DNA from: Eubacteriales bacterium
Lineage (GTDB): Bacteria; Bacillota; Clostridia; Oscillospirales; QAKW01
Reading direction: 5' to 3'
Assembly: GCA_045546995.1 (NCBI GenBank)
Contig: JAZQDW010000001.1
Coordinates: forward strand, 4,156-68,155
Length of the DNA stretch: 64,000 nt
Under the pieces are notes generated by a model that was given only the letters and a program-made list of their open reading frames with translations, was not told where the DNA came from and made no database searches. Both the position numbers and the translations under genes were made by a program. Of the stretch, positions 2,904-53,168 are shown in pieces; position 1 is the stretch's first letter, and the number at the start of each line of letters is the position of its first letter.

Positions 2904-4115
2904 ATGAACGCTAAAAGATTTCAAAAAACCTTGATCGGTATTTTGCTGTGTCTTTGTTTGCTGATCGGCTGTCTGCCCGCCGTGGCCGCCACCCCGTTTA
3001 CCGACGTAAAAAAGAACGCCTATTATGCCGAAGCAGTCGAGTGGGCTGTGGCCGGTAATATTACCGCCGGTGTCTCCCCCACCACCTTTGCCCCCGACGC
3101 CTCCTGTACCCGCGGGCAGATCGTATCCTTTTTGTGGCGCAACGCCTCCTGCCCCGAGCCCAAAACCTCTGCCAATCCCTTTACTGACATCAAGAAAGGC
3201 GCCTATTACTACAAAGCCGTACTGTGGGCCGTGGAAAACGGCATTACTGCCGGTGCCACCCCCACCACCTTTGCTCCCGACGCCCCCTGCACCCGCGGAC
3301 AGATCGTGGCATTTTTGTGGCGCAGTGCCTCCTGCCCCACTCCCCCCACCTCCGGTAATCCCTTTACCGACGTAAAGAAGAGCGCCTATTATTACAAGGC
3401 AGTATTGTGGGCCGTTGAGCAAGCCATCACCGCCGGCACCACGGCCACCACCTTCTCCCCCGAAGCGCCCTGCACCCGCGGACAGATCGTTACCTTTCTG
3501 TACCGCTATATGAATCCGCTGGATATCCTGGTCAATCCAACGGACCATTTTATGACTTCCTCTATGGAGACCGCCTCCTTTACCGTCACCGTCACCGGCG
3601 GCATCGCACCCTACACCTATCGCTGGTACGTGAGCTATGACGACGAAACGGTCCCCCAGAACTCTTTCACCACCAGAGACACACATCACACGCTGAACGT
3701 TACCGTTTCCGATTATGATTTTGACGAATATAATGCCATCTACGTTTACTGTGTCATCACCGATGCCGCAGGCAAGCAGGTGCGCAGCAACTTTGCCGAC
3801 GTAGTTCCCTACGTTTCAATGCGGATCACCGCACAGCCTGCCAATTACAATATGGCATCCTCTATGGAAACGGCCAACTTTACCGTACAGCTGACCGGCG
3901 GCACCGCCCCCTACACCTACAAATGGTATGCCAGCTATGACGGCCGGGAAGAACTTAAAAAGAGCGAGCTATCCATGCTGCCCACCAATTTCGCCGACAT
4001 CTCCTTCTCCGATTACGATTTTGATGACTACAACGTTATTTACGTTTATTGCGCCATCACCGATGCGGCAGGTCACACCGTCAACACCAACAACGCTTAC
4101 GTTTATCCCCATTAA
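2904..4115 (+). CDS. SLH-domain cell-surface protein with two Ig-like repeats
   Basis: Signal peptide MNAKRFQKTLIGILLCLCLLIGCLPAVAA. Three tandem SLH-type repeats (FTD.KK.AYY..AV.WAV...ITAG..PTTFAPD..CTRGQIV.FLWR). Two repeats of about 95 aa follow (SSMETA.FTV..TGG.APYTY.WY...DYDFD.YN.IYVYC.ITDAAG). Confidence 0.85.
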   Translation: MNAKRFQKTLIGILLCLCLLIGCLPAVAATPFTDVKKNAYYAEAVEWAVAGNITAGVSPTTFAPDASCTRGQIVSFLWRNASCPEPKTSANPFTDIKKGAYYYKAVLWAVENGITAGATPTTFAPDAPCTRGQIVAFLWRSASCPTPPTSGNPFTDVKKSAYYYKAVLWAVEQAITAGTTATTFSPEAPCTRGQIVTFLYRYMNPLDILVNPTDHFMTSSMETASFTVTVTGGIAPYTYRWYVSYDDETVPQNSFTTRDTHHTLNVTVSDYDFDEYNAIYVYCVITDAAGKQVRSNFADVVPYVSMRITAQPANYNMASSMETANFTVQLTGGTAPYTYKWYASYDGREELKKSELSMLPTNFADISFSDYDFDDYNVIYVYCAITDAAGHTVNTNNAYVYPH

Positions 4116-4137
4116 CGAGCGTTTCTTTTAGCAAAAC

Positions 4138-4171
4138 AAAAGGAGAGAGCCATGCTCTCTCCTTTTATTTT
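4138..4171. terminator. bidirectional terminator between convergent genes
   Basis: AAGGAGAGAGC-cat-GCTCTCTCCTT stem flanked by an A-run and TTTTATTTT. Confidence 0.7.
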
Positions 4172-5088
4172 GGTATCACGGTTGTGATAAATTCGGTAAC
4201 GCACTGTCTGTAACGGTCGAAGTCCTCAATAAAGCTCAGGCCGTGACCGGCAGACGGAAATGTCTCCAATCGGATGCGCTGCGGGGCGGCCGCATAAATC
4301 TCACGACTCATTTCACAGGGAACAAAACGGTCGGCCTCCCCGTGCAAGATCAAGATCGGCACCTTTGCCTTCTGCACGGCGGCGCACACGTCCGCATCCA
4401 GACGCAAGCCGCCGAAAATGCGTGCGCCGGTGATAATAAACGGCATTACCGCTCGTGACGGAAAGCCCATATCCCTTGCCACCTTGGCGATGATCCCCCG
4501 GGAGGAGGAATAGGGACAATCGGCGATGATACCGACGATATTGGCATGGATCTCCATCCCGGCGCATAACAGCACTGTAGCCGCCCCCATAGATACCCCG
4601 GACAGTATGATGGGAGTGTCCCGTCCCAAACGCTGCGCCATCCATTCGGCCCACCGTTTGACGTCCTGACATTCCCGCTCGCCGAAGCCGATGGTACGTC
4701 CCTTGCTTCTGCCGTGGGCGCGTTGATCGATCACCAGGGTATTGTGCCCAGCCTCCCTTGCCAGCTTGTTCCCGCCGCAAAAGTCCCGTGGTCCGCAGCC
4801 CTTATAGCCGTGCACCTGAATTTGCAACGGCGCGCCGTCCCGCTGATGCAGATATCTGGCCCACAGACCGTCCAGCTCCAGCCACTGCCAGGGCAACGGC
4901 TCCATCTCGTCGATCAGCTCGTCCATTCGTTGACGGGCGTGCTCGTATTGATCGCCCCGCGGCATCTCACGGGGCGTCTCTTCTTTTTTAAGGTTAAAAA
5001 ATGCCATACAGTAGCAAACAAAGCTGATCCCCAGCCACAAAAGCGCCAGGCCGACAACCACCCATACGGCGATCCACCAACCGTTCAT
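4165..5088 (-). CDS. membrane-anchored alpha/beta hydrolase
   Basis: N-terminal TM helix (WWIAVWVVVGLALLWLGISFVCYCMAFF), nucleophile elbow GVSMGA, and ILHGEADRFVP / SAGHGLSF motifs. Confidence 0.75.
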   Translation of the reverse strand: MNGWWIAVWVVVGLALLWLGISFVCYCMAFFNLKKEETPREMPRGDQYEHARQRMDELIDEMEPLPWQWLELDGLWARYLHQRDGAPLQIQVHGYKGCGPRDFCGGNKLAREAGHNTLVIDQRAHGRSKGRTIGFGERECQDVKRWAEWMAQRLGRDTPIILSGVSMGAATVLLCAGMEIHANIVGIIADCPYSSSRGIIAKVARDMGFPSRAVMPFIITGARIFGGLRLDADVCAAVQKAKVPILILHGEADRFVPCEMSREIYAAAPQRIRLETFPSAGHGLSFIEDFDRYRQCVTEFITTVIPK

Positions 5089-12956: not shown

Positions 12957-13008
12957 AGATCCCCACGTTGGGTTTGCCTTTATTTTTGTATTAAGGGAGG
13001 GGTAATTT

Positions 13009-13374
13009 ATGCATTTACTGGAATCGGGCGAAATGTATCTGGAGACTATTTGGGTCCTCTCCCGTAAGCAGCCCCGTGTTCGTTCCATCGACGTCAGTGA
13101 ACATATGGGATTTTCCAAGCCCAGCGTCAGCCGCGCCATCGGCATCCTGAAAAAGGGCGAATATATCACCGTGGCCGAGGATGGCGGCATCCGCCTGACC
13201 GAGGCGGGAAAAGCCGTGGCGGAAAAAATTTACGAGCGGCATACGGTGTTGACAAACTTGCTCATCAAGTTAGGCGTGGACGAGGCCACTGCCGCCGAGG
13301 ACGCCTGCAAAATGGAGCACGATATTTCCGATCAAACGCTGGCCGCCATTAAGGCCTTTGTAACAGAAAAATAA
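13009..13374 (+). CDS. DtxR/MntR-family metal-dependent transcriptional repressor (short form)
   Basis: MHLLESGEMYLETIWVL...SKPSVSRAIGILKKGEYI winged HTH plus the ERHTVLTNLLIKLGVDEATAAEDACKMEH dimerisation/metal region. 121 aa. Confidence 0.85.
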   Translation: MHLLESGEMYLETIWVLSRKQPRVRSIDVSEHMGFSKPSVSRAIGILKKGEYITVAEDGGIRLTEAGKAVAEKIYERHTVLTNLLIKLGVDEATAAEDACKMEHDISDQTLAAIKAFVTEK

Positions 13375-13379
13375 ATACG

Positions 13380-13414
13380 AAAACGGCATCTCCCAAAAGG
13401 GAGATGCCGTTTTT
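13380..13414. terminator. bidirectional terminator
   Basis: CGGCATCTCCC-aaaa-GGGAGATGCCG stem flanked by an A-run and T5. Confidence 0.75.
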
Positions 13415-13471
13415 AAGCGGTTTTTTCGTTGCGGAGCACTGTCCGATGCCGTTTTTCGTTATAAAATTCGT

Positions 13472-15688
13472 TTACATCATAAGTTGGCCATCAATATGCT
13501 CGTAATGAAGCATATAAGGATAATTGCGTACAAAGTTGTAAATAATGGTGGCAACCTCCGCACGGGTAGCGTTGCCCTGCGGATTAAAGACGTAGCCGCT
13601 ACCGCTCTTCACACCGTTGATGATGCCGCCCTGCTGGCAGGCCGCAACGGAAGATTTTGCCCATTTCGAAATCTTACTTGCATCCTTAAATTTCACAGCG
13701 GGGGTATCGTTGCGCAGACCCAGGCCGATGTACTGAATGAATTTTTCCATCATCACGCAGATCTGTTCGCGGGTGATATTGGCATTGGGAGCAAAACTGT
13801 TGGCAGTGACACCACTGACAATACCCACCTTGTTGGCCCAACGTACGTAACCGGTGTAGTATTGATTCTTCTTAACGTCTTTAAACTTGGTAGCCGTCTT
13901 GTGATCCACGTCAACGCCGCCAAGTCTGCCCAAAACGGTCACGAACATACCGCGGGTCATACTTTCGTTGGGAGAAAACTTGGTATCGGAGGTGCCGGCG
14001 AAGAGCTTGCTGTTAAAGGCAAAGTTGACCTCGTCGTAATACCAGTCTTTTTTCTTGATATCAGTAAACTGTTTGGTAACGTCCTTTTGGACGGGCAGTT
14101 TATCAACAACAGTCCAATCTGTTTCACCACACTTGGTGCAAATCACATAGATCTCACCGGGGGTGATGGTGGTGGGGGCAAGAATGCCGTCCTTTTTCCA
14201 CTCATGCTGATCGGGAGCGCAAGGAGCTGCATAGCCCGGTCCCTCGTTGGAAATCGTAAAGGAATAATTTCCGCCAATGGCGCCGGAGGCCTCAATGGTA
14301 TAGGTCTGGCCGGCGATCAGGGAATACCCGTAGCCGTCAGCGCTCGGCATATTGATCCAAGCGCCGGAGTAGGCGACGTTCTCTACCTCAATATAATAAA
14401 CGCCGCTGGTTTCAGGCGTGAAATCAAACAAAAAGGTGTCTTGTGCCGCCGTGGGACTGAATTTGTGCGGACCGGGACCGGTGATCTCGGGAACATCCAC
14501 TACACGAACGGTAAAGGTACATTTCATTCCCTGGGGATTCTCAGCGGTAATGGTGGCAGTACCTTTTTTCAGCAGACGCAGTTCATCATCGGCTACCTCC
14601 ACGACCGTTTCATCGGAAGAGGTATACGTAATGTTTTTGAAATCCACCGAAGCGTTGACTTGGCTGGGCTCAATACCGGGATAGATTTCCGTATGCGCAT
14701 ATCCCACGTATTCGTTTACCTCCGGCTTAATGCCGCCGGTGGTAACACCTTCCAGCAGGCCAACCTCTAACATACCGGGACCAAAGTATCCCTGCATCAC
14801 AATATAAACCAGATCGTTCTTTTGCAGTTCCATATAGCAGATCTTTGTATCAGCGGTATACCAAGATCTACCGACGTCATCGCCATTTTCGGGATCGTAC
14901 ACAATGAAGTCAACCGGTGCTCCGATTTGCATATCGACTTTCATATAAAAAACGTAGTTGCCGTCGGCAGGGGCCTTAAAGGCATAGGTGGGAAGCGTTC
15001 TGTTGGTCAAGGAAATCTTAAAGGTGTCCCCCACCTTGATGGATGTGGTGGGAACGACGGTAATCTTAACGCTGTCTCTCAACCCGTTTTCGGAAGTTGC
15101 CGTCAGGGTGGCGGTGCCGGGAGCCATGGCAAAGCAACTCCAACCATCCGTATCAACCACGTCTTTATTGGAGGAGGAATAGGTTACGTCCACCTCATAG
15201 CTTTTTTCCGGAAAAAAGACCGGCTCGAAACCGAAATTGGCGCCCACGTTGACCTGCAAATTGGTTTTTTCTTCAAAGGCCTCCATTCCGGTGGGTTCTA
15301 CCATCTTGTAGAGGGTTACTTTCATGCTGCCGGTGCCGGCGCTGTAACATCTGGCGCGCAGCGTATACTGAACACCGGCGGTAAGCTCGGCGCTGGCGAG
15401 GAAATTATTGTCTTCGCTATCATCGTCACTGCGTACCAGTTCTTCTGAACCTTCATAAATATAACCCAAGGGATCACCTGAATTATCAAAGGACTCAAAA
15501 CCATAATAGCCCGTTTGGGTAGGCGTGAAATAAAAGTCCACATACTCGCCGGAAGCGGTAATATTTACGTCCTTGGTGTCCCCCGGCGCGATGGTGTCCG
15601 GCTGCGCAGCGTTTGCCGCCAAGGGCAACATGCCACAGAGCATCACCAGCGCCATACACAACGTAAGGATTCTCCATCTTTTCTTCAT
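13472..15688 (-). CDS. SLH-domain cell-surface protein with Big_2 and PPC-like modules
   Basis: Signal peptide MKKRWRILTLCMALVMLCGMLPLAANA. Big_2-like segments (YSSSNKDVVDTDG..GTATLTATSENG, YTSSDETVVEV..GTATITAEN). Three C-terminal SLH repeats (FTDIKKKDWYYDEVNFA.., FKDVKKNQYYTGYVRWA.., FKDASKISKWAKSSVAA..). Confidence 0.85.
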   Translation of the reverse strand: MKKRWRILTLCMALVMLCGMLPLAANAAQPDTIAPGDTKDVNITASGEYVDFYFTPTQTGYYGFESFDNSGDPLGYIYEGSEELVRSDDDSEDNNFLASAELTAGVQYTLRARCYSAGTGSMKVTLYKMVEPTGMEAFEEKTNLQVNVGANFGFEPVFFPEKSYEVDVTYSSSNKDVVDTDGWSCFAMAPGTATLTATSENGLRDSVKITVVPTTSIKVGDTFKISLTNRTLPTYAFKAPADGNYVFYMKVDMQIGAPVDFIVYDPENGDDVGRSWYTADTKICYMELQKNDLVYIVMQGYFGPGMLEVGLLEGVTTGGIKPEVNEYVGYAHTEIYPGIEPSQVNASVDFKNITYTSSDETVVEVADDELRLLKKGTATITAENPQGMKCTFTVRVVDVPEITGPGPHKFSPTAAQDTFLFDFTPETSGVYYIEVENVAYSGAWINMPSADGYGYSLIAGQTYTIEASGAIGGNYSFTISNEGPGYAAPCAPDQHEWKKDGILAPTTITPGEIYVICTKCGETDWTVVDKLPVQKDVTKQFTDIKKKDWYYDEVNFAFNSKLFAGTSDTKFSPNESMTRGMFVTVLGRLGGVDVDHKTATKFKDVKKNQYYTGYVRWANKVGIVSGVTANSFAPNANITREQICVMMEKFIQYIGLGLRNDTPAVKFKDASKISKWAKSSVAACQQGGIINGVKSGSGYVFNPQGNATRAEVATIIYNFVRNYPYMLHYEHIDGQLMM

Positions 15689-15724
15689 AAACTTCTCTCC
15701 TTTACTAATAGTTTTGTTAATTTA

Positions 15725-15754
15725 ATTATAAATGCAATTAGTAACAATTGTCAA
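15725..15754 (-). promoter_or_regulatory. sigma-A-type promoter (TTGACA-18-TATAAT) for 13472..15688
   Basis: On the minus strand, TTGACA at 15754-15749 and TATAAT at 15730-15725. Confidence 0.55.
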
Positions 15755-38652: not shown

Positions 38653-40140
38653 ATGCACAACAAATACTACCTGGGAATAGACCAGGGTACCACCGGCACC
38701 ACTGCCATTTTATTTGACAAAAACTTTGCCTGCGTTGGCCGCGGTTATTGCGAAACGCCCCGTTATTTTCCCGCCTCTGACCGTGTGGAACATCAGGCAG
38801 AAGAAATTTTAGACAGCATCCGCCGCGCGGTAAAGGCAGCGCTGAAGTTTGCCGATGCCGTCGCCGGTGAGATCATCGGTATCGGTATTGACCACGAAGG
38901 CGAAAGCGTGGTTATGTGGGACAGCGAAAGCGGCAATGCCGTTTCTCCCGTCATCACCTGGCAGGACGGCCGCACCGTAGCGGCGGCTGCCGCCTTGAAG
39001 AAAAGCCACGGCAAACTGATCTACGAGCGCACCGCCCTGGAATCGGATTGCTATTTTTCCGCCACCAAACTGCAATGGATCGTCGAGAACGTTCCCGAAG
39101 CACAACAACTGCGAAAGCAAGGCCGTTTGATGGCCGGCAATCTGGACGCCTGGATCTTATGGAATTTTACCGGCGGCAAAAGCTTTGCCACCGATGCCTC
39201 CACCGCCTCCCGCACGCAGCTGTGCAACATCCGTACCGGTACGTGGGACGCAGAGCTACTGGAGCTATATGGGCTGAACGGTGTTCGTCTGCCGCAAATT
39301 ATGGACAGCGGCACCCTTTTCGGTGAAACCGACCCCGATCGGTTTTTCGGCATCCGTGTTCCCATTGCCGCCCTGATGTGCGACCAACAGGCCGCGCTGT
39401 TGGGGCAAGGCTGTTTGCAGCCCGGTATGCTGAAAACCACCTATGGCACCGGTTGCTTTATGCTGATGAATGCCGGCGACACCCCGGTCTTGTCCAAAAG
39501 CGGTCTGCTGACCACCATTGCCTGGCAGTTGAACGGCAAACGCACCTATGCGCTGGACGGCGGCATTCACATTGCCGGCGCCGCTACCCAATGGTTACGG
39601 GACGGATTGGGCATCATTCACGCCCCCCACGAAACCCAACTGCTGGCTGAAAGCGTCAAGGATAACGGCGACGTTTATTTCGTTCCCGCCTTCACCGGTC
39701 TGGGCGCCCCTCACCGTGACAATTCCGCCACCGGCATCATCGTCGGCCTAACGGGCGGTATCACCAAGGCGCATATCGCCCGCGCCACGCTGGAATCCAC
39801 CGCCTATCAGATGTGTGATCTGCTGAACGCCGTTGCCGCCGACCTACCCGAACCCATTTCTCTGATGCGGTGCGACGGCGGCGCTACCGCCAACAGCTTT
39901 TTGATGCAATTTCAGGCTGACATCTCCGGCATCCCGTTGGAGATCCCCCAGCAAAAAGATACCACCGCCTTGGGCACCGCCTATCTGGCTGCCAATACCC
40001 TGGGACTGGCAGATCTGCAAAGCATCTCTGCCCTGCACAATAAATGCCGCCGTTTCGACCCGCAAATGAGCGAGGATCAACGGCAATCCCTGCTGGCCCG
40101 CTGGCGGCAGGCGGTACAGCGTTGCAGAGGCTGGAACTAA
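38653..40140 (+). CDS. glpK: FGGY-family kinase, glycerol-kinase-like
   Basis: GIDQGTTGTT, CDQQAALLGQGC, TYGTGCFMLMN, FVPAFTGLGAPHRD, RATLESTAYQ and DGGATANSFLMQFQADI parallel GlpK motifs. The ATG lies 1 nt after the upstream stop. Confidence 0.7.
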   Translation: MHNKYYLGIDQGTTGTTAILFDKNFACVGRGYCETPRYFPASDRVEHQAEEILDSIRRAVKAALKFADAVAGEIIGIGIDHEGESVVMWDSESGNAVSPVITWQDGRTVAAAAALKKSHGKLIYERTALESDCYFSATKLQWIVENVPEAQQLRKQGRLMAGNLDAWILWNFTGGKSFATDASTASRTQLCNIRTGTWDAELLELYGLNGVRLPQIMDSGTLFGETDPDRFFGIRVPIAALMCDQQAALLGQGCLQPGMLKTTYGTGCFMLMNAGDTPVLSKSGLLTTIAWQLNGKRTYALDGGIHIAGAATQWLRDGLGIIHAPHETQLLAESVKDNGDVYFVPAFTGLGAPHRDNSATGIIVGLTGGITKAHIARATLESTAYQMCDLLNAVAADLPEPISLMRCDGGATANSFLMQFQADISGIPLEIPQQKDTTALGTAYLAANTLGLADLQSISALHNKCRRFDPQMSEDQRQSLLARWRQAVQRCRGWN

Positions 40141-40146
40141 AAAATA

Positions 40147-40179
40147 AAAGGAGATCATTGGGCAGTGATCTCCTTTTTT
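40147..40179 (+). terminator. Rho-independent terminator
   Basis: GGAGATCA/TGATCTCC stem followed by T6. Confidence 0.7.
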
Positions 40180-40185
40180 GCAAAA

Positions 40186-40218
40186 GAAAAAACCGTCCCA
40201 TCGGGACGGTTTTATTTT
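40186..40218 (-). terminator. terminator of secG (bidirectional shape)
   Basis: ACCGTCCC-atc-GGGACGGT stem flanked by A6 and TTTTATTTT. Confidence 0.7.
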
Positions 40219-47906: not shown

Positions 47907-49175
47907 ATGTTATCCATTGTTTTATTGGTATTGTGGCTGGTTCTGCAGACCGTTATGGTGGTTGCCGCCGTTTTTCTGTGCATCCGCAAGCATTTACTGC
48001 TCTCCAAAATCATCATCACGGTGGGCGGTGCCATCAACTGGAGCATATTCAGCGTATACGGCTATCTGCTGCTGGCGCTGTTCACCGGAATGGGAACTGA
48101 TTTTTCCGGTATCGTCTTTTTCTCTCTCAGCGGACTGCTGTTTTTAACGTTGATATTTCTGTTATGGGGGCTACTGCGGAAAAAGCCGTGCTGGATTCCC
48201 CTGGTTTGTATCACCGTCGTATTGTGTTTGGGCGCCGGCGGTCATATCGGTTACGGCATGTATCTGGACAGCATCCCCACGTTGGATGAAAATGCAGATC
48301 TGTTGCCCGGCTACGCCCCCTACGGTGAAAACACCAAAGTAGCCGTACCGGACGAGCCCGCCACCCTGCAGCTCACCGACGATCTGCCCCGTATGGACGG
48401 CGCCACCGCCCTGTTCCCCGTGTATTCTTCCTTTGCCCGCGCCGTTTATCCCAAGGCAAAGCTCAACAACTGGAGCGACGCTTACAACCACGATACCCTG
48501 CTGTGCACCAAAACCAACGGCGCCTACGACAATCTCATCGCCGGTGAGGTTGACATCATTTTTGTCAGCGGCCCCTCCGCCCAGCAGGAAACCTGGGCCA
48601 AGGAATGCGGCGTCGAGCTGGTCTACACCCCCATTGGAAAAGAAGCCTTTGTATTTTTTGTCAACGCCCAAAACCCATTGACGGATATCACCGTGGACGA
48701 GATCAAGGGCATCTACTCCGGACAAATCACCCAGTGGACCGAGCTGGGTGTGCCGGATCTGGGCAAAATCCGCGCCTTCCAACGGCCGGAAAACAGCGGC
48801 TCCCAGACCCGCCTGCAAAAATTGATGGGCGAGACACCGTTGATGGACCCGCCCACCAGTGACGTGGTTTCCGGAATGGGCGGTATCATCAAAGAAACAG
48901 CCGACTATAAAAATCACAAAAACGCCATCGGCTATTCTTTCCGATTTTATTCCACCGAAATGGTACAAAATCAACAGATCCGTCATCTGTCGGTGGACGG
49001 CGTCGCCCCCACGCCGGAAAACATTGAAAACAACACCTATCCGTTGGGTGGCACCTTCTATGCCGTTACCCGCAGTGACGCAGACGAAAACACCAAAAAA
49101 CTGCTGGAGTGGGTCACCGGCCCCCAAGGGCAGGCCATCATCAAAAAGGTAGGCTATACGCCACTGCATCCTTAA
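47907..49175 (+). CDS. PstS-family (PBP-like) substrate-binding domain protein with N-terminal 4-TM region
   Basis: Four hydrophobic helices in the first 120 aa or so. Then DGATALFPVY, FVSGPS, YTPIGKEAFVFFVN, IKGIYSGQITQWTELG and RPENSGSQ. Confidence 0.7.
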   Translation: MLSIVLLVLWLVLQTVMVVAAVFLCIRKHLLLSKIIITVGGAINWSIFSVYGYLLLALFTGMGTDFSGIVFFSLSGLLFLTLIFLLWGLLRKKPCWIPLVCITVVLCLGAGGHIGYGMYLDSIPTLDENADLLPGYAPYGENTKVAVPDEPATLQLTDDLPRMDGATALFPVYSSFARAVYPKAKLNNWSDAYNHDTLLCTKTNGAYDNLIAGEVDIIFVSGPSAQQETWAKECGVELVYTPIGKEAFVFFVNAQNPLTDITVDEIKGIYSGQITQWTELGVPDLGKIRAFQRPENSGSQTRLQKLMGETPLMDPPTSDVVSGMGGIIKETADYKNHKNAIGYSFRFYSTEMVQNQQIRHLSVDGVAPTPENIENNTYPLGGTFYAVTRSDADENTKKLLEWVTGPQGQAIIKKVGYTPLHP

Positions 49176-49183
49176 ACGCAAAC

Positions 49184-49219
49184 AAAAAAAAGCTTGAAGC
49201 AAAGCTTCAAGCGTTTTTT
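49184..49219. terminator. bidirectional terminator
   Basis: A8-GCTTGAAGC-aaa-GCTTCAAGC-GTTTTTT. Confidence 0.8.
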
Positions 49220-49241
49220 ATAGTTTTTTGCAATAAAACGA

Positions 49242-49335
49242 CTTTTGACACGTTAATAGGTTGCCAAAAAGGAAGTTGCATTTCGTCAACAAAGTTCCGT
49301 CGGCGTAGGTGGCTACGACAGGAGATTTGTTGGCG
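49242..49335. repeat. structured repeat element, copy A (52-nt three-helix hairpin at 49284-49335)
   Basis: Aligns with the reverse complement of 51623-51731. The hairpin reads CGTCAACA-AAG-TTCC-GTCGG-CGTAG-GTGG-CTACG-ACA-GGAG-ATT-TGTTGGCG. Confidence 0.7.
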
Positions 49336-49339
49336 GCCG

Positions 49340-49807
49340 TCACTTTTGTTTTGCCCATTGCTGTAACAAAGCAAATCCGATCATCTCCGGCACAAATTCC
49401 GCCTTTTTGTCCCCAAAATGCAAAATCAGCTTTTGCCCTTCGGTACGTTGTTGTCCTTGCAGGCGCACGCCGTCCAGTTGACTGCGTTGCAAACGCCGCT
49501 TGATAAACAGCAGGCGGCACACGGTAATTCCCGTTTCATCCACCGTGGCCCGCCATAACAGCCAATCCAGCATCAACAACAGCAACAGCCCACCCAAAAC
49601 GTAACACAGCACGGCGGGCCACACCGCATCGATTACCTGCAGCAACACCGCGATGGCCACGATCAGCACGCACCACGGCAACGCCGACAGGGAAAACAAC
49701 GGATGATACCGCATCACAAAGTTCCGCCCATCCATTACCCGTTCCGCCGCGCGAGCCGCCGTAACGGCGCGCCGTTCCAGCACGTTTAACACTTTATCCG
49801 ATTTCAT
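49340..49807 (-). CDS. membrane protein, unknown function
   Basis: 155 aa with two central TM helices (LPWCVLIVAIAVLLQVI, VLCYVLGGLLLLLMLDWLLW). No family recognised. Confidence 0.6.
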   Translation of the reverse strand: MKSDKVLNVLERRAVTAARAAERVMDGRNFVMRYHPLFSLSALPWCVLIVAIAVLLQVIDAVWPAVLCYVLGGLLLLLMLDWLLWRATVDETGITVCRLLFIKRRLQRSQLDGVRLQGQQRTEGQKLILHFGDKKAEFVPEMIGFALLQQWAKQK

Positions 49808-49823
49808 ACACAGCGTCGTCCTT

Positions 49824-50717
49824 TCATCTCAGATGGGCAAGGCCGTGTCGCACGTCCTCCATCGTTGGAATGGAGGGAGCCGCCCCCTGCCGCATCACCG
49901 ACAGGGCCGAAGCCGCCGTTGCATGCAGAATCGCCTCCTGCGGGGTGCTGTTTTGTGAAAGAAGCGCCACGAAATATCCGGTGAAGGTATCCCCTGCCGC
50001 CGTGGTATCCACCGCCTTGACGTTAAATGCTTTTTGCGTGAAACGAATGTCCTGATCGGCATAAATGCAACCCTTGGAGCCCAGCGTCACCACCAGATGC
50101 AATGACGGATATTTCTCCAACAGCAGCTCAATGGCCGTTTCCGGCTGATCGCTGTGGGCAAAACCGGCGGCCTCCGTCTCATTGACCAACAGATAGGCCA
50201 CTTTGCTCAGATCGATCTTTTCCATGGCCGGCGTAAAGGGAGAGGGATTAAACACCACCTGCAACCCCTTGGCATACGCCTTGTCAATGATATATTCCAC
50301 ACAGGACGTCTCATTTTGCAGCATCAGCATATCTCCCGGCGCAAACTGCGCCAGCACCTCATCCACGTAGGCCTTGGTAATCATACCGTTGGTACCGGGA
50401 TATACGATGATACAGTTGTTGCCATTACGATTAACCTGAATGATCGCATGGCCGTTTTTGGCTTTTGCTGTCTGCAAAAGGGACACGTTGGCGCCGCTTT
50501 CCTGCAGCATTTCCTTCAGAAACGCACCATCCTCACCGATCAAACCGGCGTGCCAGATATCACCACCGGCACGGGCCGCCGCCACCGTCTGATTCAGGCC
50601 CTTGCCGCCGGCAAAAACCTCCATTTTCTGCGCATCGATGGTCTCCCCCGTCTGCACGGCGTGATCCACGCTGTAAACGTAATCTATATTGCACGAGCCG
50701 AAATTTAAAATTTTCAT
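49824..50717 (-). CDS. rbsK: ribokinase / PfkB-family sugar kinase
   Basis: GGKGLNQ and DTTAAGDTFTG motifs. 297 aa. Confidence 0.8.
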   Translation of the reverse strand: MKILNFGSCNIDYVYSVDHAVQTGETIDAQKMEVFAGGKGLNQTVAAARAGGDIWHAGLIGEDGAFLKEMLQESGANVSLLQTAKAKNGHAIIQVNRNGNNCIIVYPGTNGMITKAYVDEVLAQFAPGDMLMLQNETSCVEYIIDKAYAKGLQVVFNPSPFTPAMEKIDLSKVAYLLVNETEAAGFAHSDQPETAIELLLEKYPSLHLVVTLGSKGCIYADQDIRFTQKAFNVKAVDTTAAGDTFTGYFVALLSQNSTPQEAILHATAASALSVMRQGAAPSIPTMEDVRHGLAHLR

Positions 50718-50731
50718 ATTGATCCTCTCCG

Positions 50732-51373
50732 TTATTTCATTTTCTCATCAAATCCGGTTTGCATTCCCTGCAAGTGTTCATCCAGACTGTTTTGCTGTAA
50801 CCGTAGCCGTCCATCCTCCCACGTCAGCACCGTGACCGAGGCATTGGTAGCCCAGGGCACCCGATCGACGGTAGCCAGCGTGGGATCCAGACAATAAGCG
50901 CTCAGCAGGCGTACCGGCGTGGCGTGAGCGGCCAACACCACCGTTTGTCCCGAATGGCGGTGCGCGATCTCCTCCAATGCCTGCAGTAAACGCTGTTGCA
51001 GTTGCCGCACCGACTCCCCTTCCGGACAGTAGGCGTTGGCAAAATCGTGGATCCACAAATCCCACAATCGGGGTTCCTCCTTGAGGCTGTCAAACACCTT
51101 GGCCTCCCATCGGCCTCCGTTGATCTCCCGCAGGCCGGGATGCGCAAAAAAGGGCGCGGCGCAGGCGGCCGCAATCTCCTGCCCGGTGACGTAAGCGCGC
51201 TTAAGGTCGCTGGCGTATACCGCCGCAACGTCATAATGCTCCGCAATAAACGCCGCCGTTTTTCTTGCCTGCTCTCTGCCCAGGGGCGTCAGCGGAAAAT
51301 CACTGAACCCGGCAAACAGATCCTGCAGATTGGCCTCGCTTTGTCCGTGACGCACCAGAAGAAAGGTTGTCAT
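50732..51373 (-). CDS. histidine phosphatase (phosphoglycerate mutase) family protein
   Basis: LVRHGQSEAN (RHG motif). AAGGTGGTGA RBS before ATG 51373. The track GTG at 51388 lies inside the RBS. Confidence 0.85.
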   Translation of the reverse strand: MTTFLLVRHGQSEANLQDLFAGFSDFPLTPLGREQARKTAAFIAEHYDVAAVYASDLKRAYVTGQEIAAACAAPFFAHPGLREINGGRWEAKVFDSLKEEPRLWDLWIHDFANAYCPEGESVRQLQQRLLQALEEIAHRHSGQTVVLAAHATPVRLLSAYCLDPTLATVDRVPWATNASVTVLTWEDGRLRLQQNSLDEHLQGMQTGFDEKMK

Positions 51374-51395
51374 TGTCCCGCTCACCACCTTATTT

Positions 51396-51424
51396 TTGTG
51401 TTTTTATTATACCATCACCGTATT
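51396..51424 (-). promoter_or_regulatory. sigma-A-type promoter (TTGACG-17-TATAAT)
   Basis: On the minus strand, TTGACG at 51424-51419 and TATAAT at 51401-51396. Confidence 0.65.
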
Positions 51425-51427
51425 TTT

Positions 51428-51458
51428 TCGTCAACAGAAAAAGGTTGGATCAAGATCC
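51428..51458. terminator. terminator-like hairpin (GGTTGGATC stem), copy 1
   Basis: AAAAAGGTTGGATC-aa-GATCCAACCCTTTTT. Confidence 0.65.
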
Positions 51459-51622
51459 AACCCTTTTTAGAGTGTAAAAAAAGTCGTTTCACCACAGAGA
51501 AACGATCAAAACAAATATATTTATTTGTGTATAACAGTAGATATAAATTGCTATATAGGTATACCGATCACTTAAATTTAAACATCAGGCGCCCTTGCAA
51601 CGCAAGGGATTGCTCTGTTTTC

Positions 51623-51731
51623 CGCGAACAAATCTCCTACCGTACCCACGTACGCTGACGGAGCTCTGTTCGCGAAATGCAACTTCCTTTTTTGCACTCC
51701 ACAGCGTGTCAAAGAAACTTCTTTGACACGC
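51623..51731. repeat. structured repeat element, copy B (hairpin 51623-51674, plus a 13-bp-stem hairpin at 51704-51731)
   Basis: The reverse complement reads CGCGAACA-GAG-CTCC-GTCAG-CGTAC-GTGG-GTACG-GTA-GGAG-ATT-TGTTCGCG. It is flanked by CGAAATGCAACTTCCTTTTTTGCA. Confidence 0.7.
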
Positions 51732-51733
51732 TG

Positions 51734-51763
51734 AAAAGGTTGGATCTTCCGATCCAACCTTTT
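51734..51763. terminator. terminator-like hairpin (GGTTGGATC stem), copy 2; terminator of MATE gene 51765..53168
   Basis: AAAAGGTTGGATC-ttcc-GATCCAACCTTTT, 1 nt from the MATE stop codon. Confidence 0.7.
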
Positions 51764-51764
51764 A

Positions 51765-53168
51765 TTATCGAATTGCTTTGGTTTTCCATTTACCCAGCTT
51801 GTAAAAGATAATGGTCAATACGGCGCCCAGCACCCAGGAGGACAGCAGAGAGATGGAGATACATTCAAACCGTCCGTAGGGCAGTTCTGCCGTGCGGGTC
51901 AGCCAAGAAATACCGTAGGCCAGCGGTACACGGATCAACACGGTAGTGATCAACGAGATCCACATCGGCGTCATGGTATCGCCGGCGCCGCGCATAATAC
52001 CCGAAAGACTTTGCGTTACGGCCATAGCGATATATCCCACTGCCAAAATGGTCATCAGATAATAACTCAGATCGACCAGCGCATCGGTCTCGGTAAAAAT
52101 ACCCATCAGCCATTTGCCGAACAGCAAAATGATCAACGTGATGGCCGCCGAACAGCCCACCGCCATACCGGTGCCCTGTTTGGCGCCCTTCATTACACGG
52201 TCATAGCGACCGGCGCCCACGTTTTGCCCCGCATAGGTGGTCAGCGCCGTACCAAAGGAAAAGTTGGGCATCATGGCAAAGCCGTCCACACGCATAACGA
52301 TCACGTTGGCGGCAATCAATTGCTCGCCGAAGGAGTTGGTCAGTGATTGCACGGTCAGCATCGCCGCCGAAAAGATGGCCTGTGTGGCGCCGGCGGGCAG
52401 ACCCAGTTTCACAATGGTCTTAACGTACGACTTTTTAGGGCGCATAAAACGCAGACCAAAATCAAAATGCTGACGCATTCTGGCCAATTTGATGCCGCAC
52501 AACAGGGACGAAATAATCTGAGCAATGACGGTGGCCAACGCCACGCCGGCTACACCCATATCAAGAAAAGCGACAAAATAAATGTCCAGCACGATGTTGA
52601 TCACCGTGGCAACGAGCAAATACAGCAGTGCCGAAAAGGAATCACCCAGTCCGCGCAACACGCCGCTGAGAATGTTGTAATAGGCCATACCGGCTCCGCC
52701 GAGCAGGGAGATCATCAAATAGTCGGTGCACCAGGGTAAAATGCTTTCCGGAGTGTTAAGCAATACCAGCACCGGACGGATCAACGGCGCGCAGATCAGC
52801 ATTAACGCCAGACAGGCAATGGCCGTCACGGTGATACAATTGCCCACGGTATAAGATAAGCCTTCTCGATTTTTGGCGCCAAAATACTGGCTGACCATAA
52901 TATTTACGCCCGCCGAAATGCCGATAAACAGCACCAACAGCAAATTGAGGATCGGCGCCGCACTGCCGACGGCGGCCAGCGCATTATCCCCCACGTAACG
53001 GCCCACCACAATGCTGTCCACTGTGGAATACAGCTGTTGGGCAATGTTGCCGATCAGCATCGGTACGGTAAACCACAGGATATTTTTCCAGGGTTTACCC
53101 TTGGTCATATCCTGCGGAGCGTATAATTTTTTAAAAACTCCGTTTACTGTTTTAAGCAAAATATTCAA
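51765..53168 (-). CDS. MATE family efflux transporter
   Basis: 467 aa, 12 TM helices. WFTVPMLIGNIAQQLYSTVDSIVVGRYVG. Confidence 0.85.
   Translation of the reverse strand: MNILLKTVNGVFKKLYAPQDMTKGKPWKNILWFTVPMLIGNIAQQLYSTVDSIVVGRYVGDNALAAVGSAAPILNLLLVLFIGISAGVNIMVSQYFGAKNREGLSYTVGNCITVTAIACLALMLICAPLIRPVLVLLNTPESILPWCTDYLMISLLGGAGMAYYNILSGVLRGLGDSFSALLYLLVATVINIVLDIYFVAFLDMGVAGVALATVIAQIISSLLCGIKLARMRQHFDFGLRFMRPKKSYVKTIVKLGLPAGATQAIFSAAMLTVQSLTNSFGEQLIAANVIVMRVDGFAMMPNFSFGTALTTYAGQNVGAGRYDRVMKGAKQGTGMAVGCSAAITLIILLFGKWLMGIFTETDALVDLSYYLMTILAVGYIAMAVTQSLSGIMRGAGDTMTPMWISLITTVLIRVPLAYGISWLTRTAELPYGRFECISISLLSSWVLGAVLTIIFYKLGKWKTKAIR

Follow-up and report, generated by a model that had tools for sequence, protein, structure and literature searches.

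Two copies of a short structured repeat face each other across a three-gene operon in a 64,000-nucleotide stretch of DNA from a Eubacteriales genome (hereafter the window), which raises the question of whether the copies act together on the operon or arrived there separately. A preliminary description had proposed two inverted copies of an element of ~95 nt, with a hairpin under selection for pairing, that bracket the operon. The analysis presented here favors, with moderate confidence, the view that both repeats are members of one undescribed family of non-coding, MITE-like mobile elements of ~265 nt.

Results

The window repeats and their relatives

The inverted repeat first noted at this locus is real. 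A repeat search of the window returned one inverted pair, with arms of 75 nt (49262–49336 and 51622–51696) that are 85% complementary, in agreement with the earlier count of 63 identical positions in a 74-nt core. The 20-mer AAAAAGGAAGTTGCATTTCG is common to both copies and occurs in the window only at 49266–49285 (+ strand) and 51673–51692 (− strand), against a chance expectation of 0.01. The unit itself, in contrast, proved longer than the ~95 nt first given: it measures ~265 nt, ends in terminal inverted repeats and is flanked by duplications. A covariance model derived from family members other than the window copies matches exactly two window sites: the core of copy B (116 bits, E 2e-24) and copy A (65 bits, E 6e-13). 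The next best site scores 23 bits.

Beyond the window, ~50 copies are present in eight species-level MAGs of one Clostridia clade, to which the species of JAZQJG01, JAZROO01 and RGIG7681 belong, and the richest of these MAGs hold 10–17 copies. A scan of one genome per species with an 18-mer returned 65 loci, ~45 of them true members, from 8 MAGs; a profile search added further copies that lack the 18-mer; and a metagenome scan with the 3′ motif contributed one extra member (L081), while its other 25 loci matched by chance or belong to an unrelated repeat. Neither of the two conserved motifs occurs in the viral contigs, and no blastn match to the element was obtained in phages and plasmids. As far as the collections show, the family is confined to a small clade of uncultured gut Clostridia. 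Full copies are 231–271 nt long, and one copy of 368 nt holds a nested insert. In line with the earlier failure to match the element to a known RNA family, Rfam models at gathering score gave no element match in the whole window or in 14 family loci, and nothing relevant was found around either window copy at E values up to 10. The sole group II hit in the Rfam scan lies 6 kb from a copy.

A coding reading of the element was considered and rejected. From copy to copy, the longest open frames fall on different strands and in different frames, with no conserved ORF, and a 16-codon reverse-strand ORF (MQLPF...) that runs through the repeat motifs lacks a ribosome-binding site. The variable positions of the long hairpin (H2, below) change in pairs rather than in a synonymous pattern. 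Inserts at the H2 tip in L022 and L064, examined as a candidate for the missing ORF, are a separate non-coding element of 160 nt with 28-nt inverted repeats. No conserved −35/−10 pair that could serve as a promoter of the element was detected in either orientation.

Architecture and fold

A full copy consists of terminal inverted repeats (CAGnnTGTCAAA), a left-end hairpin formed from the same motif and a multi-helix body. The terminal repeat reads CAGCGTGTCAAAG at the 5′ end and CTTTTTTGACAGTCTG at the 3′ end, and a second left copy (CAGACTGTCAAAAAAG) lies inside the first. The outer left repeat folds with its own inverted copy to give hairpin H1, and the inner left repeat pairs with the right terminal repeat and closes the body. 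Within the body, a three-way junction bears hairpin H2, and a long-range helix, P4, encloses hairpin H3 and a variable AT-rich arm. Some copies, such as L022, begin at the inner repeat and lack H1.

In the window, the complete architecture is seen in copy B (51470..51733, − strand, 264 nt), which aligns with nhmmer profile positions 1–265 of 267 (E 1e-57). Read along the − strand, H1 (51702..51733, CAGCGTGTCAAAG-6 nt-CTTTGACACGCTG) is helix 1 of the family fold, and its 5′ arm is the outer left terminal repeat. The inner left repeat and an invariant stretch follow (51673..51701, ..GTGCAAAAAAGGAAGTTGCATTTCG) and provide the 5′ strand of the closing helices P1–P3. H2, the long hairpin of the preliminary description, spans 51621..51676 and comprises helices 4 and 5: a variable, covarying outer stem, an invariant internal loop (GUCGG/GUA) and the tip CGUAC-GUGG-GUACG. 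The 5′ strand of P4 (ACAGAG, 51613..51618) has its partner at 51494–51499, and H3 (51591..51609, TCCCTTGC GTT GCAAGGG) is helix 7. The variable AT-rich region (51500..51590) corresponds to poorly conserved alignment columns 150–247 and holds a small hairpin (51528–51511) followed by a T run. Finally, the right end (51470..51499, CTCTGTGGTGAAACGACTTTTTTTACACTC) contributes the 3′ strands of P4, P3 and P1 together with the right terminal repeat, which is degenerate at 3 positions relative to the consensus GACAGTCTG.

Both window copies fold into the hairpin as it was first drawn, and the proposal of selection on its pairing is borne out by the 29 full copies, in which the outer stem changes on both sides at 11 of 15 pairs. 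The preliminary description had allowed that further copies might lack structure-preserving variation; the opposite was found across the additional copies. Over the consensus fold, 98.2% of pair cells are standard pairs, compared with 41–49% when the partners are slid, and double-sided changes occur in 25 of 59 pairs. These values were reached by 0 of 500 shuffles, a count that is not a probability because the copies are kin by descent. Double-sided changes are seen in 8 of 12 pairs of H1 (98.8% of cells paired) and 3 of 8 pairs of H3, and one pair of P4 changes from A-U to U-A in 8 copies. The left and right ends covary as well, with a copy's own ends pairing better than cross-matched ends (0 of 5000 permutations). 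On the structured strand, wobble pairs are strongly asymmetric (98 G·U vs 6 A·C); the reverse strand's own predicted consensus fold, which is a different pair set, gives 39 vs 28. Compensatory changes thus maintain the fold on a single strand. The orientation favored previously, from the hairpin through GAAATGCAACTTCC to the terminator, is the complement of this pairing-preserving strand and is not supported.

Insertion at intrinsic terminators

The element sits at intrinsic-terminator palindromes, and the palindrome differs at every locus. In 30 of the 33 full copies that could be evaluated, the terminator is present as a direct repeat on both sides of the element. These flanking repeats are 19–44 nt long (median 33), 13 of the 30 are identical (L009, L020, L031, L040, L045, L046, L048 and L051 include such copies), and their ends lie mostly within about 2 nt of the hairpin feet. 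The two terminator copies differ in the 9 nt that follow the stem, where the upstream copy (T1) has 3.9 T vs 6.1 T in the downstream copy (T2; p 1e-5). In L062, a tandem T-E-T-E-T arrangement is observed.

Based on a crude gene call from a codon-usage score, 14 copies lie between convergent genes, 7 are in the sense orientation only and 4 are antisense only, so strict co-orientation with the upstream gene is not upheld. Since copies have no set orientation toward their flanking genes, it is not guaranteed that every copy has its structured strand read through. Several features expected of a MITE are present: small size, lack of coding content, terminal inverted repeats, target duplication and many dispersed copies whose presence or absence varies between relatives. 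What is unusual for a MITE is that the duplication takes in the terminator palindrome in its entirety.

Copy B is a complete insertion into the terminator of the MatE gene 51765..53168. The upstream copy of this palindrome (T1, 51734..51763, − strand, AAAAGGTTGGATCGGAAGATCCAACCTTTT) is directly repeated as T2 (51438..51468, − strand), where a terminator-like site is found on the + strand; in the same-species contig L066, T1 and T2 are identical (32/32). T2 is followed by a full T tract and then by the operon promoter (51434–51406, TTGACG-17-TATAAT on the − strand).

Copy A (49239..49336, + strand, 98 nt; nhmmer profile positions 16–113 of 267, E 3e-19) is a decayed insertion that follows the terminator of the PBP-like gene 47907..49175. 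This truncated relic retains the 3′ arm of H1, the invariant stretch and H2, and has lost H3, the right end and the second terminator copy. The same-species contigs L068 and L069 carry copy A truncated in the same way. Its insertion target is the terminator at 49184..49219, which is terminator-like on both strands and shared with the convergent operon. The hairpins first reported as strong terminators at 49184–49219 and 51734–51763 are indeed there, and their role is corrected to that of host-gene terminators hit by insertion. Likewise, a stop codon does lie close to the copy A hairpin, at 49340, 3 nt past it.

At a third site, 13379..13455, one terminator palindrome occurs twice, side by side, and no element separates the copies. 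The surrounding window sequence (13008–15731) is 90–92% identical to L016, in which a full element at 4137–4404 lies between the two palindrome copies. From this window site, at 13.4 kb, the element has been lost.

Discussion

The reading preferred here, held as somewhat better than an even proposition, is that the element is MITE-like, that a structure-dependent transposase moves it in trans, and that its fold is under selection in one single strand, either RNA or ssDNA. Such a transposase would attack the terminator stem-loop, probably in the form of an extruded cruciform, at both of its feet; repair would then duplicate the stem-loop in full, as in the 'pathway b' proposed for the structure-dependent transposition of IS1272 (IS1182 family). 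Part of the T tract is missing from the upstream terminator copy, so read-through would probably carry transcription across the element, as a 3′ UTR, to an end at the downstream copy. Selection on the fold may act in this read-through RNA or in a single-stranded DNA form during transposition.

IS1272 and TnSha1 target terminator hairpins without sequence specificity and in both orientations (PMC4923244; PMC5678879, Fig 13). The element resembles them in its stem-loop target, which is mostly a terminator just downstream of a gene, in its Firmicutes hosts, in its lack of primary-sequence specificity and insertion in either orientation, and in its ends, with ~16 bp terminal inverted repeats and variants that have an additional left-end repeat. 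The observed insertions of IS1272 and TnSha1 delete or replace the hairpin with no duplication (PMC5678879, PMC4923244), and the published model includes a pathway that duplicates the whole stem-loop ('pathway b', PMC5678879). As IS1272 deletes the hairpin and leaves no duplication, whole-hairpin duplication by its family is a published model, not an observation. In contrast, the element described here duplicates the hairpin in 30 of 33 copies, which only 'pathway b' fits; it carries no transposase gene, and it is likened to IS1272 by target and ends, not by IS1182-family sequence. In addition, no covarying internal fold is reported for IS1272. Whole-hairpin target duplication is drawn as a possible outcome and not documented in the cited literature; the family gives ~30 clean examples together with a collection of natural targets.

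A search of the window, of ~400 kb of family loci (in 8-kb blocks from fragmented MAGs), of plasmids and of phages brought up neither a transposase nor an autonomous partner that has these termini. Outside the known copies, the terminal motifs gave chance matches only, and no multi-copy protein was found among the family loci. A comparison of 20 window ORFs with Pfam (17 matched, 3 not) returned housekeeping or transport genes. In the partner search, the exact window ribokinase was absent from the records, and the gene beside the L056 copy gave only highly conserved homologues, with no record for its closest relative (P0122).

Among bacterial MITEs and small structured repeats, the Correia/NEMIS, ERIC, RUP and BOX elements are likewise small intergenic sequences that do not code for protein, occur in many copies and end in terminal inverted repeats; co-transcription with neighboring genes and folding as RNA are further traits that the element probably shares with them. 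Their duplications, however, are short and fixed (e.g. TA), whereas the target here is structure-defined and 19–44 nt long, and they mostly form one long end-to-end hairpin rather than a multi-helix junction with independently covarying helices and strand bias. Each insertion turns one terminator into two, the first weakened and the second full, with 265 nt of structured 3′ UTR between them, often where genes converge; such rewiring could alter read-through and mRNA stability genome-wide. The family also disrupts short-read assemblies of these gut Clostridia.

Against the preferred reading stand the negative partner search, the variable orientation of the copies and the fact that DDE cut-and-paste needs the termini only, which leaves the one-strand covariation of a 200-nt internal fold, long-range helices included, unexplained; through this feature the family offers a way to ask if selection on small bacterial repeats acts on RNA or on ssDNA. 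An alternative that is unlikely, yet carries some weight, is a strand-specific single-stranded intermediate, in which the fold of the element would be the transposition substrate and nicks at the two hairpin feet would give the duplication. The intermediate could be ssDNA, acted on by an HUH-type or other structure-specific nuclease, or RNA copied by a reverse transcriptase in trans, as for a SINE. The wobble asymmetry is consistent with this proposal, as are the covarying long-range helices that join both ends, which double-stranded cut-and-paste would not need. Subfamily-specific compensatory changes are common to copies in different genomes and must therefore have arisen in source copies that later spread. 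Further, the length of the duplication tracks hairpin size, with no fixed stagger, and one host genome (L020) contains a group II intron, hence a reverse transcriptase. However, target duplications are not a feature of known ssDNA transposons (IS200/IS605, IS91) or of group II introns, the termini of the element are inverted repeats of the classical kind, and the element shows no one-ended poly-A/poly-U tail signature and no ribozyme or intron model match; nor is an HUH or reverse-transcriptase gene linked to any copy.

Other known systems offer partial parallels. REP/REPIN-RAYT elements and IS200/IS605 PATEs, which rely on single-stranded DNA chemistry, are also extragenic, hairpin-rich and strand-specific and often lie beside terminators. 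They differ in having no target duplication, element-borne subterminal hairpins and a fixed 4–5 nt target, whereas the hairpins that flank the present element are host terminators, locus-specific and duplicated. Class C group II introns are structured RNA elements that home just past intrinsic terminator hairpins; the element, unlike these, has no group II domains by Rfam, is 265 nt long and has duplicated flanking hairpins and inverted-repeat ends. A related idea, held to be about as doubtful as the single-stranded intermediate, is that of a terminator parasite that needs its own folded strand in order to spread. It would insert at the hairpin foot, strip the upstream U tract, be read into by host transcription and spread via that RNA or an equivalent ssDNA strand with a structure-specific nicking enzyme or reverse transcriptase provided in trans. 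If true, the family would be a bacterial counterpart of SINEs, or a new strand-specific transposon class that duplicates whole hairpins.

It is less probable again that the element is primarily an RNA useful to the host, such as a 3′-UTR module or small RNA (e.g. a 3′-end stabilizer or protein-binding RNA), with spread and flanking repeats being secondary. The conserved unpaired stretches and invariant internal loop within a covarying scaffold would suit such a role, as would the placement right after coding genes with a weakened upstream terminator and a fold far more stable than shuffles (z = −10.6). These features are countered by the decay of copies, as copy A is truncated, the 13.4-kb site is emptied and the right end of copy B is mutated. 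Moreover, close relatives differ in presence or absence of the element while the neighboring genes are unchanged, some copies are antisense to the sole flanking transcription, the host genes are functionally unrelated, and the lack of a conserved promoter of its own also argues against this role.

Insertion by a Cas1-type (casposase-like) integrase is very improbable. In CRISPR spacer acquisition, a palindromic repeat of ~30 nt is duplicated by attacks at its borders, and Cas1-Cas2 off-target integration prefers cruciform borders. The outcome here is formally the same, as a palindromic unit of ~33 nt is duplicated around the insert, and the element would share with CRISPR spacer integration and casposons a staggered attack at the borders of the unit, which ends up on both sides. 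Casposon duplications, however, are fixed at 14–15 bp, unlike the variable lengths seen here. No cas1 gene was seen near any copy and no cas genes are linked to it, the target is not a dedicated repeat but any terminator, and the insert is 265 nt long with transposon-like inverted-repeat ends.

The operon between the copies

The weakest explanation is the one implied when this locus was first described, that the two inverted copies act jointly on the operon, as ends of a composite or invertible segment or as paired regulatory RNAs: the inversion of the copies around three co-directional genes would suit it, but it is hardly credible and appears already refuted as far as comparative data can do so, since copy A lacks its entire 3′ part and the second terminator copy, each copy follows, as copies do at other loci, the terminator of a gene that is not part of the operon (MatE, PBP-like), and the 2.5-kb segment as a whole has no flanking duplication. 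In the related contigs L070 and L071, the element is absent from both window sites, each of which holds a single terminator. A segment bounded by the two copies that varies as a unit is likewise not supported, as L070 has the operon in the same order without the elements. Because a related species shares the gene order but has only single terminators and lacks the element, the operon is not cargo and its bracketing reflects two independent insertions; the facing of copies A and B across it is a coincidence. Gene order in L070 is identical to that of the window (MatE, His_Phos, PfkB, a 157-aa protein and the convergent PBP gene), with a ribokinase 78% identical to the window ribokinase, and that in L071 is similar.

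A longer element underlies the inverted repeat

The inverted repeat reported around the operon was confirmed: its arms (49262-49336 and 51622-51696) span 75 nt and are 85% complementary, and a 20-mer common to both has no other occurrence in the window (chance expectation 0.01). Both copies are predicted to fold into the hairpin drawn in the preliminary description. No Rfam family matches at gathering score across the 64 kb, and permissive Rfam scans around each copy returned only weak matches, on the adjoining terminators; the element is absent from Rfam. A covariance-model search of the window (core model, filters off) found only the sites of copies A and B. A weak covariance-model match at 40127-40213 (plus strand; 23 bits, rough E 0.002) contains two terminator-like hairpins and is probably not a family member.

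The proposed unit of about 95 nt proved too short. Extension into the flanks revealed homology far past 95 nt, and copy B (51733..51470, minus strand) matches positions 1-265 of a 267-position profile made from full copies. Copy A (49239..49336, plus strand) matches positions 16-113 only. On the minus strand for B and the plus strand for A, the stop codon of the upstream gene is followed in a full copy by a terminator palindrome (T1), hairpin H1 (CAGCGTGTCAAAG-6 nt-CTTTGACACGCTG), (g)CAGACTGTCAAAAAAGGAAGTTGCATTTCG, the long hairpin H2, GGAAAACAGAGAAAA, hairpin H3 (GCCTTGC-nnn-GCAAGGC), a variable AT-rich stretch of ~100 nt that includes a small hairpin and a run of T, TTCTCTGTGGTGAAACGACTTTTTTGACAGTCTG, and a second terminator palindrome (T2) with its T tract. 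The outermost bases of the element, CAGCGTGTCAAAG and CTTTTTTGACAGTCTG, are mutual inverted repeats, and the left end contains two further occurrences of the terminal-repeat motif. In some copies (locus L022), H1 is missing and the element starts from the inner left repeat. On the reverse strand, all family copies carry a 16-codon open reading frame from ATGCAACTTCC (MQLPFLTPxSVSKRVL; window 51673-51720, plus reading), which crosses the repeat motifs, has no ribosome-binding site, and was judged a chance occurrence rather than a coding sequence.

Copy B has three mutated positions in its right terminal repeat (TACACTCTA versus the consensus GACAGTCTG), is otherwise complete, and may now be immobile. 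Of H1, copy A retains just the 3' arm; it also keeps the invariant stretch and H2, lacks the second terminator copy, and is separated by 3 nt from the stop codon of gene 49340..49807. The deletion stayed outside this gene, because the C-terminus of the protein aligns to the end of its homologue in the related locus L070.

Distribution of the family

A scan with the 18-mer AAAGGAAGTTGCATTTCG, using one genome per species, returned 65 loci. The hairpin core is present in ~45 of these, and the other 20 are chance matches within unrelated genes. The true members belong to eight MAGs labeled Eubacteriales, Clostridia, or Clostridiales bacterium (JAZQJG01, JAZROO01, JAFZEA01 (RGIG7681), LVAN01 (Firm_08), JAZNSU01, JAZNYQ01, JAZQIZ01, and JAZKZU01), with 10 to 17 copies in the richest. 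The profile identifies additional members without the 18-mer. A scan of JGI metagenomes added one member, and none was found in the viral contigs, phages, and plasmids scanned. Since positions 9.3-15.7 kb of the window share 82-92% identity with a contig of JAZQJG01, the window organism represents a ninth, related species.

Several other repeats and RNAs were observed in these sequences. JGI metagenome contigs L076, L079, L083-L086, and L094 contain a separate repeat family, unrelated to the element, in which an 18-mer common to both families (GTGGTGAAACGACTTTTT) precedes CCCCACAAG. The conserved flanks of this repeat amount to ~200 nt, and L084 contains two copies. In MAG RGIG7681, a group II intron (RF02001, 70.9 bits; L020 7600-7784, minus strand) is located 6 kb away from a copy of the element, which makes it likely that at least one host genome encodes a reverse transcriptase. 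In Clostridiales bacterium Firm_08, a Gut-1 RNA (RF01706, 64.7 bits; L009 3351-3528) lies directly 3' of a tRNA gene. The window also contains a 183-nt tandem repeat (3060-3490; 2.4 copies, 81% matches) within an S-layer homology domain gene (2904..4115).

The element lies between duplicated terminators

The element is always located at a terminator palindrome, and this palindrome is duplicated. Among the 33 full copies with enough flanking sequence, 30 have a locus-specific direct repeat of 19-44 nt (median 33) on both sides, identical in 13 of the 30. This repeat is the terminator palindrome, and in most copies it ends no more than ~2 nt from the predicted stem feet. Perfect palindromes are duplicated exactly in L009 (34 nt), L020 (31 nt), and L051 (40 nt). 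Copy B is flanked by AAAAGGTTGGATCGGAAGATCCAACCTTTT (51763-51734) and AAAAAGGGTTGGATCTTGATCCAACCTTTTT (51468-51438), and in a contig from the same species (L066) both terminator copies are identical across 32 nt. A T-E-T-E-T arrangement of terminators and elements in L062 is as expected if a second copy inserted into one of the duplicated hairpins. Over the 9 nt that follow the final G-C pair of the stem, T residues are fewer in the upstream terminator copy than in the downstream one (3.9 versus 6.1, p 1e-5), which suggests that T1 is probably weakened and T2 intact.

Comparison with relatives shows that the element, a short non-coding repeat bounded by inverted repeats, is present in some and absent from others. 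Locus L070, with a ribokinase 78% identical to that of the window, has the same gene order (MatE, His_Phos, PfkB, 157-aa protein, and a convergent PBP gene) and a single terminator without the element at each of the two sites, one preceding the operon promoter and the other following the last gene; L071 is similar. At the site in the window (13379-13455) orthologous to a full element between two terminator copies in L016 (4137-4404), both terminator copies are adjacent with no element between them. This site looks like an excision that retained the duplication, or an old deletion. Two species have the element at the same orthologous terminator (L012 3400-3700 and L056 213-475), after a small conserved ORF downstream of a decarboxylase beta-subunit gene. 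The terminator sequences are unrelated, which suggests that the insertions were independent events at one site or that both terminator copies changed in concert.

The reading of the two copies as a bracket around the operon is rejected. Copy A lies behind the terminator of the plus-strand PBP-like gene and copy B behind that of the minus-strand MatE gene; because each follows the terminator of an outside gene, the apparent bracketing reflects two independent insertions. More widely, neighboring genes were called by a codon-usage score, for which long ORFs from these loci served as the training set. Among 30 non-edge full copies, 14 have convergent genes on either side, 7 have a co-oriented upstream gene as their only such neighbor, 4 are oriented antisense to the single gene that ends at the site, and 5 are unclear. 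An initial impression of strict co-orientation with the upstream gene was not borne out by these calls. The flanking genes have housekeeping and transport functions and are mutually unrelated.

One strand carries a covarying fold

A closed structure was predicted by RNAalifold from 28-29 full copies. In this model, P1 joins the inner left repeat to the right end, and its stem is extended by two short invariant helices (P2 and P3). A three-way junction bears H2 together with P4, a long-range helix (ACAGAG with CUCUGU) that would enclose H3 and the variable arm. In alignment A1, standard pairs account for 98.2% of 1694 cells, versus 41-49% with the partners slid by 1-3 columns, and 25 of 59 pairs show changes on both sides. 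None of 500 shuffles matches any of the five observed pairing measures, values that are counts and not probabilities because the copies share ancestry; despite this, the direction and size of the covariation effect are clear. Double-sided changes affect 11 of 15 pairs in the outer stem of H2, 8 of 12 in H1, and 3 of 8 in H3, and one P4 pair changes from A-U to U-A in 8 copies. The duplex of left and right ends is also more stable for a copy's own ends than for cross-matched ends (-13.5 versus -11.7 kcal/mol; 0 of 5000 permutations as good).

Wobble pairs mark which strand is structured. This strand has 98 G.U versus 6 A.C cells or, tallied by pair position from the per-pair listing, G.U at 18 and A.C at 4. 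For the reverse strand, the consensus fold predicted for that strand itself comprises a different set of 55 pairs, with 39 G.U versus 28 A.C cells. The selection on structure claimed earlier is borne out and considerably extended, but the strand is opposite to the terminator-ward reading then favored.

Proposed structure-dependent insertion and its closest parallel

Because the length of the duplication tracks hairpin size and not a fixed stagger, target recognition appears to be structural. The simplest chemistry would be staggered attack at both feet of the stem-loop followed by repair, and a cruciform would juxtapose these feet. Direct repeats of the IS1182 family in ISfinder are 0-60 bp. 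The closest documented behavior is that of IS1272 and TnSha1 from this family, which insert in staphylococcal terminator hairpins in both orientations without sequence specificity (PMC4923244). In the cruciform model for these elements, attack at the 5' feet would leave the entire stem-loop duplicated (PMC5678879, Fig 13, pathway b). In contrast to the duplications described here, the observed IS1272 events delete the hairpin, and the present family is therefore not shown to be an IS1182 derivative. The element is MITE-like, with structure-dependent targeting, and the top-ranked reading, which we consider fairly probable, is a MITE mobilized in trans. No transposase or multi-copy protein was found in the sequence of the family loci examined.

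The strand-specific covarying fold is unexplained by structure-dependent insertion and points to a single-stranded form under selection. This form could be a read-through RNA, which is plausible for those copies with a co-oriented gene upstream (21 of the 25 informative ones); alternatively, selection could act on a single-stranded transposition intermediate, either DNA or RNA. Transposition through such an intermediate is the main rival to mobilization in trans and is judged improbable, with a real but minority chance that the element represents something new. No description of a family combining whole-terminator duplications with such a fold was found in the searchable literature.

Hairpin targeting in this clade is supported by inserts in four copies, located precisely at the tip of H2 between GCGTAC and CGGTAG. 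In L022 (748-907) and L064, the insert is an element in its own right, 160 nt long and bearing 28-nt inverted repeats; in L064, only its left part is present, from about 2472 to the locus end at 2525. The left end of a related insert is found in L056 (1-118), where the contig ends 118 nt later, and L025 contains a different structured insert of 130 nt (about 1139-1245). The 160-nt element replaces 7 nt of the H2 tip without duplication, an outcome that resembles that of IS1272.
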